Source: a candidate division WOR-3 bacterium (GTDB taxonomy: Bacteria; Hydrothermota; Hydrothermia; LBFQ01). From it: 64,000 bases of DNA. Positions 1 to 46,522 of the stretch are shown in pieces (positions within the stretch are counted from its first letter, which is position 1; each line of letters opens with the position of its first letter). The stretch is from NCBI GenBank assembly GCA_039802605.1, contig JBDRWW010000003.1:86444-150443 (forward strand), written 5' to 3'. The notes below the pieces were generated by a model that did no database searches, was not told the DNA's origin, and saw nothing but the letters and a program-made list of their open reading frames with translations. The translations under genes were made by a program, and so were the position numbers.

Positions 1-1216
1 TCAAACTCCTCATAAGTAATGTCCTGGAAAAGTAATCCCCGGGAAAGAGCATAAATTCCCTACGCATGACATAGTCGTATGTTCTATTGTTTTGCGAAAA
101 ATCTATGAACCTGACCCTAACCCTCCAATTTTCCGTAATGTTAAAGTTATAACTCATCTTATCGCCTTCTTTTTTCTCTTCGAATCTTAGGTTTGCGTAT
201 ATATATCCCGAATCCGCGTACAACCCCAAAACCTCCCCCCTTGCCATTTCAAACTTTTCCTTTGAATATAACCCCCTTTCTAAGGCCTGGGGGGCCCTAT
301 ACCAAAACCCATACTTCAACCAATCAAATATACTCGGTTTTTTAAAAACTATACTTTTAAACCTCTCTTCTAGGGTTTTGCTATCAAAAACCTCATTCCC
401 CTCAAAGGACACATCTCCAAATTTATACTTTTTGCCCTCTGTTACATAAACAACTATACCCATATAACCGTTTTCTAAGGGATATACGGAAAAGGAATCA
501 ACCTTTGCCTCCGGGTATCCGTGATTGTGATAAAACTCTTCAACCCTTCTTATATCCTCTTCCCATTTATCGTCGTTAAACACATACCAACTCGTCAATC
601 TCAAGTACCACTTGTATTCTTTTGTGTGAAGGATTTTTTTTAATGTCGCGGATGAATACGCATTGTTTCCCTTAAAGTCTATAAAGCCTACCTTGAATTT
701 TTCGCCTTCATATACCTTGAAAATTATAACCGTCTCCCCGTTTTTGTCCGGCTCCTTTATCTCGTAATCAACCCTTGCGTTAAGGTATCCCTTTTTCTTA
801 TAGATGTTTTCAATGGTTTTTTTCATCGCAAAAATGTTTTTCTCTGTGGCGGCTTTGTTCTTAAAAACCTTATTCAAAGTGTCAATTAAAGATTTACTTT
901 TAACATTTTTTGCGCCCTGTATCTCAAACTTTTTTATCCTAGGAGCCTCTTTAAAAACGAAGAGCATATCAATGGTATCCTTACGGAGCATACCGAGGAC
1001 CTTTATATCGTCAAATATGCCCAGATTCCAAACCCTATCAAGGGCCTGCTTGAAATCCATGGCTGTTAATCTTTGTCCCCTTTGTAGCCTCAAAGCGCTC
1101 CTTATAACCTGATGGTTTGTCCATTTAACATCCAAAATCTGTATTTCCCCTATATAAACCTCCTTTGGTATGGGTTTTGCGGTATCGACTTGCAAAACTA
1201 AAATACCTAAGAGCAT
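1..1216 (-). CDS. bamA: Outer membrane protein assembly factor BamA, N-terminal POTRA region (runs off the window edge)
   Basis: Manual translation from ATG 1216: MLLGILVLQVDTAKPIPKEVYIGEIQIL...ALDRVWNLGIFDDIKV...KEAPRIKKFEIQG...YKKKGYLNARV...IYEGEKFKVGFIDFKGNNA...YHNHGYPEAKV...VTEGKKYKFGDVSFEGN. These are repeated POTRA signatures. Confidence 0.9.
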   Translation of the reverse strand, partial: MLLGILVLQVDTAKPIPKEVYIGEIQILDVKWTNHQVIRSALRLQRGQRLTAMDFKQALDRVWNLGIFDDIKVLGMLRKDTIDMLFVFKEAPRIKKFEIQGAKNVKSKSLIDTLNKVFKNKAATEKNIFAMKKTIENIYKKKGYLNARVDYEIKEPDKNGETVIIFKVYEGEKFKVGFIDFKGNNAYSSATLKKILHTKEYKWYLRLTSWYVFNDDKWEEDIRRVEEFYHNHGYPEAKVDSFSVYPLENGYMGIVVYVTEGKKYKFGDVSFEGNEVFDSKTLEERFKSIVFKKPSIFDWLKYGFWYRAPQALERGLYSKEKFEMARGEVLGLYADSGYIYANLRFEEKKEGDKMSYNFNITENWRVRVRFIDFSQNNRTYDYVMRREFMLFPGDYFSRTLLMRSL

Positions 1217-1280
1217 AAGCGGTTATTTTATTGCCGTTTTGTTTTTAGTTAGTACCTTTCCACTTTAAAATATCCGCGCT

Positions 1281-1520
1281 ATGAAAATTACAAAAGAGAC
1301 AACGGTGGAAGAGGTAGTTGTAAGGTATCCGGATGCCGTTGATATATTTTTCAAATACGGGATTCCCGCCATAGCGTGCGGGACACCTATATGGGGCACC
1401 ATAGGGGAAAATGCGGAAAGGTATGGGGTGAAGGATTTAGGTGGTTTGTTAAGGGAGCTGAACGAATTGGTGGAAAAGAAAGGGGAGATGGATATTAAAC
1501 TCAACCCTATAAACGAATAA
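1281..1520 (+). CDS. DUF1858 domain protein (hybrid-cluster-associated redox disulfide-like)
   Basis: KITKETTVEEVVVRYPDAVDIFFKYGIPAIACG...TIGENAERYG pattern. Confidence 0.75.
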   Translation: MKITKETTVEEVVVRYPDAVDIFFKYGIPAIACGTPIWGTIGENAERYGVKDLGGLLRELNELVEKKGEMDIKLNPINE

Positions 1521-1547: not shown

Positions 1548-1621
1548 GGGCGCGTAGCTCAGGTGGTTAGAGCGCTCGTTTGACATGCGAGAGGTCGGAG
1601 GTTCGACTCCTCCCGCGCCCA
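1548..1621 (+). tRNA. tRNA-Val(GAC), CCA not encoded
   Basis: Acceptor stem GGGCGCG/CGCGCCC, anticodon arm CTCGT-TTGACAT-GCGAG, T-loop TTCGACT; TATAAT at 1529-1534. Confidence 0.95.
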
Positions 1622-5405: not shown

Positions 5406-5792
5406 ATGTTATTAGCGTTTATACTATCGCAAAACCAAGATACCTTAGAGGATACATTAAAGCGTAAGGATATCTTTATAAAATCACCCGTTAAAGCCGC
5501 TTTGAGGTCGGCGGTTATTCCGGGATGGGGGCAGTTTTACAACGGTAGAGCATTTAAAGGCCTAATACTTGGAGGGTTTTCCTTTGTATCCCTCGGTTGG
5601 ACATTGAAAACTTTTAACGATTACAGGATGAAGGGGGATAATCAAAGCGTATCCAAATTTTTGGGGGCTTTGATAGTTAATATAGCGGTTTGGGGTTATA
5701 CTATTGCCGACGCGTTCGTTGATGCGTATTTATACGGATTTGAGGCCGAGAGGGATACGGTTTTAAAGGATATAGAGGTTAAAAAGCATTAG
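5406..5792 (+). CDS. DUF5683-like membrane protein
   Basis: KSPVKAALRSAVIPGWGQFYN...DAFVDAYL. Confidence 0.75.
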   Translation: MLLAFILSQNQDTLEDTLKRKDIFIKSPVKAALRSAVIPGWGQFYNGRAFKGLILGGFSFVSLGWTLKTFNDYRMKGDNQSVSKFLGALIVNIAVWGYTIADAFVDAYLYGFEAERDTVLKDIEVKKH

Positions 5793-15328: not shown

Positions 15329-16498
15329 TTATTTCCATTCCGCAACGAATATGTTAAACTCCCTGCGGTTTTTTGCACCCCTGTTTGATGTCCATACGAC
15401 CTTCTTTCCGTCTTTGCTGAACATTGGGAATGCATTAAACCCCTCTGAAAATGTTATCCTTTCAAGGTTTCTACCGTCAACATCAACTTTATAAAGCTCA
15501 AAACTAAAACTCCCGGGCTTGTGTAAGTTTGATGAGAAAATTATAAACTTTTCGGATGGGTGGAAATATGGGGCAAAGTTTGAAACGCCCTTTGGGGAAT
15601 GCGTTAGTTGGGTAAATTTTTTCGTTTTCGTATCGTATAAAAACAGTTCAACATCTTGGGGTTTTACGAGGTCCTTGGAGAGTAATTCTTTAAATTCCTT
15701 TATTTCCGAAGTATCCTTTAAGTGGCGCGCCCTAAATACGATATACCTACCCGAAGGGCTAAACATGGCTCCCCCATCGTATCCCGGAAAATCCGTAATC
15801 CTTTGTATTTCCCTTGTCCTTATGTTTATCGTGTATAACTCCAAGTCCCCATCCTTTGAGGATGTAAAAACAACAACATCCCCGTAATTCCCTTCACCCT
15901 CGGCATCGTATCCATTTGATGAGAACAGCGGATATATGCTATCCCTTTTCAAGTCGTAAATGTAAAGGTCGTAATTAAACAGCCTCCAAACATAGACCCC
16001 TTTCCTCAAATATTCATTTGCATATGGATTTGTAGGGCATTCCAAACCTTGGGAAAATGTACTTGAAAACAGTACGGAATCCGGACTTATAAACCAACCG
16101 CATGTATTTGCACCACCCGGAGAAATCCTCTTTATCGGAAAACCGAATGTATCCATAACAAAAATCTGATCGCACTCAAACCTCCCTTTAACAAAGGAAT
16201 TGAAATACAAGCCTTTAAAATCCGCCGTGTCGTATATTTCGGGGATAAAGAACATCCAACCTTCCGAATGTTTTACTTTAAAGTATTTTAGTTTTTTGGA
16301 TTTTATGAGACTTTCAAGTTTCCTCGGTTCTTTTGTTAAAAGATATACCCCACCTTCTCCCTTTGTTTGAAAAACGATCCTTTCCCCATCGGGTGAGAAA
16401 TATGCTTCGGCGTTTTCCCCGACAAAGGTCAGTTGTTTTATATTCTTCAAAAACCTTTCCTCGCCTTTAAATAGCAATTGGGATACTATGAGAACCAT
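15329..16498 (-). CDS. TolB-like PD40 beta-propeller protein
   Basis: ENAEAYFSPDG, GYDAE, GYDGGAMFSPSG, NFAPYFHP, FPMFSKDGKK. Confidence 0.85.
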   Translation of the reverse strand: MVLIVSQLLFKGEERFLKNIKQLTFVGENAEAYFSPDGERIVFQTKGEGGVYLLTKEPRKLESLIKSKKLKYFKVKHSEGWMFFIPEIYDTADFKGLYFNSFVKGRFECDQIFVMDTFGFPIKRISPGGANTCGWFISPDSVLFSSTFSQGLECPTNPYANEYLRKGVYVWRLFNYDLYIYDLKRDSIYPLFSSNGYDAEGEGNYGDVVVFTSSKDGDLELYTINIRTREIQRITDFPGYDGGAMFSPSGRYIVFRARHLKDTSEIKEFKELLSKDLVKPQDVELFLYDTKTKKFTQLTHSPKGVSNFAPYFHPSEKFIIFSSNLHKPGSFSFELYKVDVDGRNLERITFSEGFNAFPMFSKDGKKVVWTSNRGAKNRREFNIFVAEWK

Positions 16499-16541
16499 AG
16501 GCGTTTATTCTACCCTTGTTAATCGTCCTTAAAATTATCAC

Positions 16542-43753: not shown

Positions 43754-46522
43754 TTATTTTACGATGAAGCGGTTTATAGTTGTCCTGTTCCCCGCCTTTA
43801 CCCTAACCATATAAGCACCCTTACTCAGATCGGACAGGTCAAACCGCAGGTTCCCATAATAATAACCCTTATATAGATTCTTAACCAACCTTCCGGATGG
43901 TGAGAATATTTCAACGCTAACATCGGATTTATAAGGTATATTCACTATTAGCTCAACACCATTGTCTTTGCGGGAAATGCTCAAACTCGGGGGAATTACA
44001 TCTTTAAATGTTTCGGATATATCCGTTGAGGCGTCAAACCCCACTATGGCGAATGTTACGACTTGTGAACCCCCGGAAGGTATGTTGAAAGGTCCGGCGG
44101 AAGCAACAACCGACCAGTCATTGGCCGAAGAACCGGATGGGAACGAAAGTGTCCCGTTCAAGAACTTCCACTTTATTGTATCGGGTGTTCCGGAATATAC
44201 ATATATTGAGTTGTCTATGGCGCTCAGGTTTGCCAAGGATGAAACGGGATCAACAAGGGCAACACCCGCACGGTAAGGATAGGAGGAATGATATATATAT
44301 GCCAGTTTCAAAGATGTGTCTGTTGCTGCATAGTTTTGGTTATATGTGCTTACATCAAAGTCGGCAAATACACCTATATACACATTGTTCAGAGGTGAAG
44401 TTGAGCGGTTTACCAACTCGTACCTCAGGAATACCCAGTTCGGCCTGTAAGACCGGTATCCGTACGCCTCAAGCCTTAGTTCAACGCCAAAAGGTGTTGA
44501 ATGCCCCGAATCGTCATACCCAGCGGCACCGTTTTCATCCCCAAACATAGGTGTTGATCTAATAAATCCACCGTAATATCTTGATATATCTCCCCCGTCA
44601 TACCAGCCATCCGGGACATATGTCTGGGAATTTCCAAAGGCCACGCCGGCGTAATACAATAGATTTGCCCCCGTCTTGGGATATTTGAACCCTTTTGCGG
44701 TTGTCGTATCCCCGTAATGGGTTCCTATTCCACCGGGCTGGTTTACGGGTATCCATAGGGCCGCCGTACCGGTATCTATTACGAATACATCAACCGGGTT
44801 TCCTATGGTCAGCGTGAAGTTTAGTGTATCGTTATAACCACCGCTATTTGCGGATACATACATGTCAAACCTCACGGATAAACCAATTGGCGCACTCGGG
44901 GACACGCTTATTGTGAATACATCCGATGTGTTGGTCGCGGAATCGGAAGGCGCGATATTACCGTATACCGCGGAGTTATCAATTATCGTTATATACGGGT
45001 TTGAGGTGTATATGGTTGCCTGCGTATTGTTCGCCGCACCACCACCCGAATTTCTCAGCGTTATTATGAGGTTAACGGTTTCGCCGGGATCGGCTATGTT
45101 ATTGTTATTACCAGCCGCGTCATCAACAAACACCCTGGATAAGGCGATATAAGGTACGCTTGAAGAAGGGGTATTTTCAACCGCCCTTAGGGCATTTAAT
45201 CTACCCCAACCGCAGTTGTTGTTGGGTATTGAGTTGCAATCCGGAGCGGGTCTATCGGCATAATCCAAAAGTATGTTATACACCTGCGTAAAATCAAGCG
45301 TTGCGTTCTTCTGAAACATGAGGGCTATCGTTCCCGTAACATGCGGGGCCGCCATTGAAGTGCCGCTCATATTGGTGTAGGAGCTTGAACCATAAGAGGA
45401 ATACACATTTACACCTGGTGCGGATATGTTGGGTTTGTAAAAGTTCCAATCACTCCTTGGCCAATAAGATGTATTATTCCATGGGCTTGAGTTTGGTGCG
45501 GGACCCCTTGAAGAGAAGGAAGCAATACGGTCGCTATTATCCGTGGCGCCAACGCCTATAACGGTCGGGAAATTGCCCGGAGTACCGGCTGTCCCGGAAC
45601 CCGGACCGCTGTTTCCTATGGAAAATACGGGTATTATGTTGGCAGTCCTCCAAGCCAAAACATCGTTCCAGAAAGTCAAATCCGTTGTTGCGGTGCTACC
45701 CCAAGAGTTATTAACCGCCACAATATTTATACCGCTATCAACCTTCCAATCAACTATCCTCTGGAACCCATTCCTTATAATCGTCGTCGTCGTTGAACAG
45801 AAACTTCCTCCGAATATCCTAACCATGGCCAATCGTGCCCCGGGTGCAACACCTATATCGTTTGAAAACGATCCAAGACCATCACCGCCTACCATCGTTC
45901 CGGATGTGTGCGTGCCGTGATAGGAACAAGCCGATTCATCCGTAGGCGTTGAGGAACCACCATAGGGATCGTACCACTTTATAACCTTACCGTTTAGTGC
46001 CGGGTGCGAAGCCATAACGCCCGAGTCCATTGAAGCTATTATAACTCCCGTTCCGTCTATGCCATAGTAAGCCCATACGGAATCCGCCTTTATCTTATCA
46101 ACACCCCAGGCCACGGCGTCGGGCTTTATATCACCGCCATCCGATGGTTTTGCGAATAGATATATAACTTCCTCTTCGTAAATGTATGTTATGTCATTCC
46201 TTGCGGCCAGGGATCTTATCTGTTGAGGCGTTGCCTCTACGAATATCTCGTTGCTTATCCAAAATCCTTGGTAGTTGGTTATACCGAGCGACTTTATGTG
46301 TTCTATTACGGGTTCTTGTGTTCTTTTTGCTAAGTCTTTCACATATGTGAATATGCTTTTTAGTGTTTGGGTGTTGCGTTTGGGGTATTGCCTCATGAAT
46401 TCCTCGTAATCCGGTTGGTCTTTTAGCACGAGGAACACCCTGAACTTTTGCTCCGGAGGCGCTGAATTTAACTTCGCCTCCAACTCCGGCTGTAACTTCG
46501 CAAGTGATATTACCCAAAGCAT
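43754..46522 (-). CDS. Subtilisin-like S8 serine protease with propeptide and T9SS-type C-terminal domain
   Basis: Triad DSG, HGTH, GTSMAAPH; C-terminus IFSPSGRLVK...LSKGAYMVRV; start corrected to ATG 46522 from the promoter. Confidence 0.92.
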   Translation of the reverse strand: MLWVISLAKLQPELEAKLNSAPPEQKFRVFLVLKDQPDYEEFMRQYPKRNTQTLKSIFTYVKDLAKRTQEPVIEHIKSLGITNYQGFWISNEIFVEATPQQIRSLAARNDITYIYEEEVIYLFAKPSDGGDIKPDAVAWGVDKIKADSVWAYYGIDGTGVIIASMDSGVMASHPALNGKVIKWYDPYGGSSTPTDESACSYHGTHTSGTMVGGDGLGSFSNDIGVAPGARLAMVRIFGGSFCSTTTTIIRNGFQRIVDWKVDSGINIVAVNNSWGSTATTDLTFWNDVLAWRTANIIPVFSIGNSGPGSGTAGTPGNFPTVIGVGATDNSDRIASFSSRGPAPNSSPWNNTSYWPRSDWNFYKPNISAPGVNVYSSYGSSSYTNMSGTSMAAPHVTGTIALMFQKNATLDFTQVYNILLDYADRPAPDCNSIPNNNCGWGRLNALRAVENTPSSSVPYIALSRVFVDDAAGNNNNIADPGETVNLIITLRNSGGGAANNTQATIYTSNPYITIIDNSAVYGNIAPSDSATNTSDVFTISVSPSAPIGLSVRFDMYVSANSGGYNDTLNFTLTIGNPVDVFVIDTGTAALWIPVNQPGGIGTHYGDTTTAKGFKYPKTGANLLYYAGVAFGNSQTYVPDGWYDGGDISRYYGGFIRSTPMFGDENGAAGYDDSGHSTPFGVELRLEAYGYRSYRPNWVFLRYELVNRSTSPLNNVYIGVFADFDVSTYNQNYAATDTSLKLAYIYHSSYPYRAGVALVDPVSSLANLSAIDNSIYVYSGTPDTIKWKFLNGTLSFPSGSSANDWSVVASAGPFNIPSGGSQVVTFAIVGFDASTDISETFKDVIPPSLSISRKDNGVELIVNIPYKSDVSVEIFSPSGRLVKNLYKGYYYGNLRFDLSDLSKGAYMVRVKAGNRTTINRFIVK

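Follow-up and report, generated by a model that had tools for sequence, protein, structure and literature searches.

The 64,000-nucleotide (nt) stretch of DNA analysed here (contig JBDRWW010000003.1 of assembly GCA_039802605.1, positions 86,444 to 150,443; hereafter the window) stems from a Candidatus Caldipriscus, a hot-spring bacterium of the phylum WOR-3, class Hydrothermia, and holds at its left edge the 5' part of the gene bamA. We propose, at a probability of roughly 0.6, that the BamA protein encoded there carries a minimal Sec signal lacking an n-region, that it is produced from the transcript of a promoter consisting of a -10 element only, and that the signal is probably cut before Gln9. 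Sec signals are tripartite, comprising a basic n-region, a hydrophobic core and a c-region, and prediction tools are built on this layout. The comparisons described below support the existence of a natural Sec-type signal that would be made solely of the hydrophobic core, 7-9 residues long, and would be used family-wide.

The start of bamA is tightly confined by its surroundings. On the minus strand, as read from the window sequence, the hexamer TAAAAT (1230-1225) is followed by the 8-nt sequence AACCGCTT and the start codon ATG (1216-1214), which is the first ATG, GTG or TTG past the in-frame stop. The codons of the bamA frame are TAA (1225-1223), CCG, CTT, ATG, CTC, TTA, GGT, ATT, TTA, GTT, TTG and CAA, and the stop, three codons 5' of the start, consists of the last T of the hexamer and the AA next to it. 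The protein thus opens with MLLGILVLQ (fuller opening MLLGILVLQVDTAKPIPKEVYIGEIQI). Codons 1-8 (MLLGILVL, 1193..1216) make up the entire hydrophobic N-terminus and the putative signal, and the Gln9 codon CAA (1192-1190) encodes the candidate first residue of the mature protein, in view of the enrichment of Gln at the end of such runs. The frame occupies positions 2..1216 (feature 1..1216, minus strand, the first 405 codons) and is open at the window edge; the whole gene in the contig has 776 codons. A first-pass annotation had pointed to the stop, to the TAAAAT hexamer 8 nt before the ATG and to the mere eight hydrophobic residues preceding the rest of BamA, and all three observations hold for the full-length gene, the hexamer fitting a promoter motif that adjoins starts genome-wide. 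The same annotation had argued that a longer signal could be encoded only via a frameshift, and this claim can be strengthened. The spacer between bamA and the divergent gene starting at 1281 (1281..1520, plus strand; 79 codons, with a weak DUF1858 match of 25.9 bits against a cut-off of 32.2) is 64 nt long. On the bamA strand all three of its frames hold stops and none codes for a hydrophobic or basic stretch, so that even an insertion or deletion could not restore a classical signal. The start codon of bamA as read is correct, and the feature is real and not a product of chance.

With respect to identity, the protein matches the NCBIfam equivalog TIGR03303 at 439.9 bits (cut-off 297.15), residues 23-773 corresponding to positions 4-738 of the 741 in the profile, and Pfam assigns POTRA (3.2e-47, four stretches) and Omp85 (1.9e-39, residues 467-776). 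Matches to solved BamA chains begin at residues 16-23. The AlphaFold2 model (mean predicted local distance difference test score, pLDDT, 81) displays alpha/beta units and, after them, a long series of strands; the pLDDT stays below 50 for residues 1-17, which adopt no secondary structure, and the first beta-strand of POTRA1 is predicted at residues 21-28 (1133..1156, minus strand). The hydrophobic core LLGILVL comprises seven residues after Met, at the lower limit of the classical range of about 7-15. As no Lys or Arg occurs before residue 14, there is no positively charged n-region. A cut before Gln9 would give a signal of 8 residues with Leu at -1, outside the classical length of about 16-30 and without the small residues at -1 and -3 of a classical c-region, and the next candidate cut, after VDTA, would put Asp at -3. 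The absence of Cys from the first 40 residues argues against the lipobox of a lipoprotein (signal peptidase II), and no Arg stands ahead of the hydrophobic run, which leaves no twin-arginine motif for the Tat pathway.

BamA was matched in all 41 Hydrothermia genomes sampled. Within the family of the source organism (referred to as f1) eleven bamA loci reach the start, while a twelfth is cut by a contig end, and all eleven proteins start with Met followed by 6-8 hydrophobic residues: MLLGILVLQ (twice), MILFLLVQ, MLILISQ, MFVLFLAQ, MITFFVLQ, MLLIFLSQ, MLLWITVLS, MILLLIGQ (twice) and MVLLLIGQ. The ATG has its counterpart in each of the eleven loci. An in-frame stop is located 2-4 codons upstream in nine of them, with TAA, TAG and TGA all seen, and TAGAAT or TAAAAT lies 7-9 nt before the ATG in all eleven, at exactly 8 nt in nine. 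Throughout the Hydrothermia examined, BamA begins with Met or a TTG-encoded residue and 6-12 hydrophobic residues, usually followed by Gln. The other families of the class use ATG or TTG, some of these starts being placed behind a clear AGGAGG, as exemplified by MWLFLTAQ followed by VIGDVQVEGLKY, (TTG)LIIILGQ followed by FIGKIEVQGLKY, MFKILLLIFISQ, and (TTG)LKAVIFLLLAGQ. In several of these proteins POTRA1 follows directly after the Gln, and thus there is no room for a longer signal. The comparison of related N-termini suggested by the first-pass annotation therefore turned up no normal signal, neither in the eleven loci of family f1 nor in the other Hydrothermia examined. Outside the class, most BamA proteins of WOR-3 carry a classical signal, 20-25 residues long and containing Lys or Arg (loci L120-L122, L125, L127, L128, L130 and L132-L136), and charge-free signals of 8-13 residues occur in family f14 and two other WOR-3 families (L118, L123, L124, L126, L129, L131). 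Desulfobacterales BamA, chosen as an outgroup, was mostly unusable owing to an extra N-terminal region of about 150 residues, and E. coli was used as the control instead; the only Desulfobacterales loci with readable signals (L055, L066, L096) are all classical. As a side observation, an extra N-terminal domain is suggested for most of the Desulfobacterales BamA homologues at loci L056-L113, in which the frame is open for 140-260 codons before the POTRA1 match.

Two explanations would render the short N-terminus only apparent. The sequence comes from a metagenome-assembled genome (23 contigs, 1.65 Mb, 90% completeness), and a normal signal peptide might have been lost from BamA through an indel in assembly or sequencing or through mis-binning of the contig. 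The stretch or part of it is contained in 20 public sequencing runs, and contigs from three DNA runs of three studies, none of them flagged as a possible source, were aligned to the site. All three cover 1190-1240 without an inserted or deleted letter: the contig from run X8 spans all of 900-1600 with a single substitution at 987, record 5 of run X13 spans 1109-1577 and record 10 of run X14 spans 929-1428, both with 0 differences. At 1200-1240, where the first-pass annotation had called for a check of read support, the contigs of three independent runs thus agree and show no indel. Together with the lack of a signal in any spacer frame and the same layout in 11 of 11 family genomes, this makes loss of a normal signal by indel or mis-binning exceedingly improbable, and we rejected it. 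Alternatively, translation might begin further upstream by read-through, recoding or a non-canonical start and thereby yield a longer signal; no evidence in favor of this was found. Since TAA, TAG and TGA each occupy the codon at -3 among the relatives, recoding of one particular stop codon is excluded. The codons between stop and ATG are merely CCG and CTT, the in-frame peptide 5' of bamA, SGKVLTKNKTAIK, is not signal-like and is itself preceded by a further stop, and the region holds the promoter motif. On the variety of stops and the nature of the upstream peptide we likewise rejected upstream initiation and recoding, which we regard as barely credible.

To place BamA in the context of the whole proteome, open reading frames (ORFs) were called, crudely, as the longest non-overlapping frames of at least 100 codons. 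From these, 1218 of 1573 were retained as start-constrained, that is, with an in-frame stop no more than 12 codons away from the first ATG, GTG or TTG, which under normal initiation prevents a much longer N-terminus. N-termini were classed as short if residue 1 opened an uncharged run of 6-12 residues with at least four V, I, L, M, F or W and no membrane segment followed later, and as classical if a hydrophobic run of 9 or more came after Lys or Arg. Of the 1218 start-constrained ORFs of the genome, 76 were classed as short, 73 as classical and 35 as lipobox starts; the short form is hence about as common as the classical one. An in-frame stop lies within four codons for 47 of the 76 short starts, and the uncharged run ends at residue 8-10 in 60. 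Gln is the run-ending residue in 22/76 short and 13/73 classical signals, compared with 4.8% expected from composition. Trp is found at position 3 in 15 of the 76. The lipobox proteins that were scanned keep classical signals of the MKR type with 15-20 residues, the figure of 35 being a biased count as the pattern required Lys or Arg.

The proteins with short starts are largely those expected outside the cytoplasm. Pfam assigned a family to 57 of the 76 (19 had none), and 31 of these 57 belong to families acting outside the cytoplasm. The set comprises BamA, two OEP/TolC, SurA, two LolA-like, three TonB-dependent-receptor-like, a YfiO-like TPR and a TolB-like PD40 protein; further members are a DsbA-like protein, a dihaem cytochrome c, PCuAC, three subtilases, two C25, M14, M23, SLT, SLBB and others. 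Domains in these proteins begin at residues 9-13 (CarbopepD_reg 9-10, DUF4159 9, PCuAC 10, OEP 13). An independent test was provided by the cargo of the type IX secretion system (T9SS), since such cargo must cross the inner membrane. From 19 Por_Secre_tail and 8 FlgD_ig matches, two duplicates and three weak FlgD_ig matches (E near 0.006; short frames in two cases) were dropped, and of the 22 distinct frames judged by eye 17 are short, three classical and two unclear.

Controls were run with the identical pipeline, and the figures refer to start-constrained ORFs and state short/classical. In E. coli K-12 (250 kb) the result was 1/16 of 162, the single short one being a mis-started frame; WOR-3 family f17 (280 kb) yielded 0/32 of 204 and family f14 (280 kb) 2/24 of 185. 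Hydrothermia family f4 (280 kb) showed 6/18 of 187, and many of its 'classical' signals have merely 12-14 residues (M-K/R-x followed by some 8 hydrophobic residues and Gln). Two genomes of a second genus (g2) of family f1 (180 kb, 57-58% GC) gave 13/4 of 119, by which low GC content was rejected as the cause of short signals. Under a looser definition free of length limits, the uncharged N-terminal run ends at a median of residue 11 in both samples of f1, 12 in f4, 17-18 in f14 and f17, and 20 in E. coli. By these counts the predicted ultrashort signal characterizes the Caldipriscus family, and the other families of the class show intermediate forms.

The sequence element immediately upstream of bamA is similarly widespread. 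The motif CggCaaTAAAAT (1225..1236, minus strand), with its -10-type hexamer at 1230-1225 located 8 nt 5' of the ATG and C residues at -6 (1236) and -3 (1233), agrees with a logo obtained across the genome, and the C at -6 recurs upstream of bamA in the relatives. Hexamers of the form TANN[AT]T ending 6-9 nt before starts number 403 in the genome, compared with 80 expected from positions 20-39, and 377 of the 1218 genes (31%) have one at this distance. The 377 aligned sites carry C at -6 in 80%, C at -3 in 55% and T at -1 in 56%, with no -35 element, giving the consensus C-N2-C-N2-TAnAAT; instances in the window are found at 1225-1236 and 16507-16518, both on the minus strand. TTG or GTG serves as the start in 85 of the 377 motif-bearing genes. 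The excess of hexamers is also seen in genus g2 of family f1 (43 vs 3), is weaker in f4 (34 vs 13) and is absent from f17, f14 and E. coli. The 8-nt sequence between hexamer and ATG contains no GGAG, GAGG or AGGA and thus no Shine-Dalgarno sequence. Since a -10-only promoter appears to adjoin the ATG, the bamA mRNA is probably leaderless or nearly so, and occurrence of the motif before 31% of starts implies that leaderless or near-leaderless mRNAs may be widespread in family f1. As the in-frame stop consists of the last T of the hexamer and two purines, it is largely a by-product of this promoter layout. Leaderless mRNAs are common in Actinobacteria, Deinococcus-Thermus and archaea. The situation here is similar in that a -10 element is located 6-9 nt before the start, in the absence of a Shine-Dalgarno sequence, at 31% of start-constrained ORFs; it differs in the conserved C at -6 and -3, the lack of a -35 element and the use of TTG and GTG starts as well.

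The machinery that would be required for Sec-dependent export is present. The genome encodes SecA (978 amino acids, aa), SecY and YidC, and a single signal peptidase I gene (223 aa; TIGR02227, 149 bits) whose product has one N-terminal membrane segment and what we take to be the usual Ser and Lys boxes. We consider it probable that bamA is transcribed from the -10-only promoter adjoining its ATG, giving a leaderless or nearly leaderless mRNA, and that the sole export signal of the precursor would be Met and seven hydrophobic residues, with no charged n-region and a c-region of one residue at most. The short signal would most likely engage SecA/SecYEG directly, and the single, ordinary-looking signal peptidase I would probably cut before Gln9. 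Mature BamA would then begin with QVDTAKPIPK, its N-terminus lying about ten residues ahead of POTRA1. Such a reduction of the tripartite Sec signal to its hydrophobic core would be the standard for exported proteins of the family other than lipoproteins.

How far does this arrangement depart from known systems? As in a classical signal cut by signal peptidase I, the stretch of BamA is N-terminal and hydrophobic, and it sits in the same protein and at the same place ahead of POTRA1 in a cell equipped with SecA, SecY and signal peptidase I. However, the E. coli BamA signal, as read from its locus, has 20 residues with a Lys-Lys n-region, while here there are 8 residues and no basic n-region; the core is limited to 7 residues after Met, the c-region to one residue at most, and -1 would be Leu. 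Work with engineered signals in E. coli has shown that a short poly-Leu core is functional, that about 8 strongly hydrophobic residues are near-optimal and that hydrophobicity can offset a missing positive charge. Hence Sec export can in principle be driven by a core of about 8 residues that is hydrophobic throughout, but the laboratory constructs keep their n- and c-regions, whereas here natural core-only signals would be found on much of the exported proteome. In Bacteroidetes a Q-rule has been described, according to which cleavage by signal peptidase I exposes a Gln that is then cyclised to pyroglutamate; in the source this rule is presented as Bacteroidetes-specific and not general to the FCB (Fibrobacteres-Chlorobi-Bacteroidetes) group (PMC5837995). 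The frequent Gln after the signal run across WOR-3 resembles this rule in the predicted N-termini: Gln is enriched after the hydrophobic run, and the lineage also has T9SS cargo. The signals described in that source are of normal length, while those considered here are ultrashort and plant-type glutaminyl cyclase (PF05096) was not found. By a loose definition, Gln after an uncharged run accounts for 15% in the genome studied and 29%, 14% and 15% in the genomes G032, G074 and G066, respectively, compared with 3% in E. coli.

Several observations weigh against a cleaved, self-sufficient Sec signal made from a leaderless transcript. With regard to transcription, a scan of 1100-1700 with the sigma-70 consensus returned no -35/-10 promoter and no terminator. 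Of the sequencing runs, analysed as contigs, those from RNA match only 1548-1600 within 900-1600, a part belonging to a tRNA-Val (GAC) gene (1548-1621, plus strand), and none covers bamA. At the level of single genes, hexamer and short signal are not linked, the hexamer occurring at 34/76 short and 30/73 classical starts; on this basis we rejected the notion that short signals are a by-product of leaderless genes, although by lineage short signals and hexamer layout both peak in family f1. The classifier is crude, and about 8 of the 76 short starts are cytoplasmic false positives or mis-called (AsnB, PurF, IspDF, Mdh, a glycosyltransferase, cytidine deaminase, BFN and YidD), in addition to the 19 lacking a Pfam family. 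With regard to cleavage, Leu at -1 is unusual for signal peptidase I, Gln follows in just 22 of the 76 short signals, and by reading the list of these 22 we found A, S, G, C or T at -1 in only 14. A search limited to the plant-type cyclase did not find PF05096 in this genome, which is 90% complete. Finally, 7-8 residues cannot span the bilayer as a helix, and access of signal peptidase I so near to the N-terminus would remain unexplained.

Some of these points would be accommodated if the short N-terminus were real and yet neither cleaved nor sufficient as a Sec signal, targeting relying mainly on the mature domains or on an undescribed route suited to cells lacking the signal recognition particle (SRP), so that the eight residues would stay on BamA or act merely as an accessory. 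The stretch is indeed too short to span a membrane, Leu would be at -1 if the cut occurred before Gln, Gln is limited to the 22 of 76 signals, and targeting in the class is already unusual, as Ffh, FtsY and SRP RNA were not found there. However, the N-termini vary in sequence and keep their hydrophobicity and length across genera at 41% and 58% GC, as signal peptides do, and the short starts are almost confined to envelope and secreted families. Furthermore, the BamA orthologues of other WOR-3 families have classical signals where the short stretch is located here, which points to shortening and not to replacement, and the genome encodes SecA, SecY and signal peptidase I of ordinary appearance. 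We therefore consider this alternative rather unlikely, and favor a minimal Sec signal probably cut before Gln9.

The apparent lack of SRP deserves separate consideration: neither Ffh nor FtsY nor SRP RNA was found in the Hydrothermia genomes searched, 64 in number in the widest search. The Ffh M domain (PF02978) was found neither in the genome studied nor in any of 41 class genomes, 31 of which reach 90% completeness or more and some of which are listed as 100% complete with 3-4 contigs, while 14 of 14 controls were positive. The GTPase domain common to Ffh and FtsY (PF00448) gave only weak matches in the class, with a maximum of 28.6 bits; the two of these that were read correspond to RadA and an MeaB/ArgK-like GTPase and hence not to Ffh or FtsY. 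In tblastn searches of the genome with six WOR-3 Ffh proteins only one P-loop match of 58 residues was obtained (E 0.008). A profile of the six, applied without filters to all 11,161 open frames of the genome, reached 16.4 bits at best, compared with 611 bits for the positive control, and 25.4 bits at best over all 64 class genomes. SRP RNA (RF00169) was not found in the genome either. In a sample of 71 genomes of the phylum, Ffh is present in 40 and SRP RNA in 43, in the same groups family by family. Neither the Ffh M domain nor SRP RNA was found in the 13 Hydrothermia genomes of this sample or in the 14 genomes of families f12, f18, f22 and f24-f27, where FtsY was not searched for; the remaining WOR-3 families sampled have both. 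A strict dependence of short signals on SRP loss is not supported, as family f14 has Ffh and SRP RNA yet a fairly short, charge-free BamA signal (MTSLLLALLLATQ), and families f22, f26 and f27, in which neither was found, have classical BamA signals. Since the type of BamA signal does not strictly track the absence of SRP, we regard this absence as context and not as cause. Nevertheless, a wider scenario may be put forward, if only tentatively: the Hydrothermia might have lost the whole SRP pathway, and the Caldipriscus family might have exchanged the tripartite signal for a 7-9-residue uncharged hydrophobic tag on most of its exported proteins other than lipoproteins, a tag which Sec would read in an undescribed way. 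With similar reserve it may be speculated that this tag, often followed by Gln, would be captured directly at its very first residues, for example, by SecA or SecYEG at the ribosome exit.

Further genes in the window display the same features. The TolB-like PD40 protein (15332..16498, minus strand) starts with MVLIVSQ, and TAGAAT is positioned 8 nt 5' of its ATG. A DUF5683 protein (5406..5789, plus strand), the third such gene in the window, begins with MLLAFILSQ. A T9SS cargo with a C-terminal Por_Secre_tail (43757..46522, minus strand) opens with MLWVISLAK, with TAGAAT 10 nt 5' of the ATG; its start is less tightly constrained, because TTG and GTG codons are present upstream in the open frame.

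A literature search retrieved no report of ultrashort signals or of missing SRP in these lineages. In the article texts without supplements, 'signal peptide' does not appear in PMC12285271, PMC12542636, PMC11696919 and PMC4791363, 'leaderless' is absent from the first three, and terms for SRP, ffh and ftsY are absent from PMC4791363 and PMC12285271. According to the latter, electron microscopy of a cultured WOR-3 isolate reveals both an inner and an outer membrane. If our interpretation is correct, both the lower limit of a natural Sec signal and the cleavage geometry of signal peptidase I would need rethinking; at the same time, a very small, thermostable export tag would be available for testing. 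In the wider scenario outlined above, these would be the shortest natural Sec signals that we know of, and a free-living diderm lineage would target all of its membrane and exported proteins without SRP. SRP has long been viewed as universal, and its absence, if confirmed on the cultured isolate, would bear on this view and make SRP-independent targeting of membrane proteins testable in a natural system. Predictions of the secretome and envelope for genomes of the Caldipriscus family would probably under-call exported proteins, as this bacterial family, living at about 80 °C, appears to use a core of 6-8 residues after Met on BamA, TolC, SurA, LolA, TonB-dependent receptors, DsbA, cytochrome c and most of its T9SS cargo.

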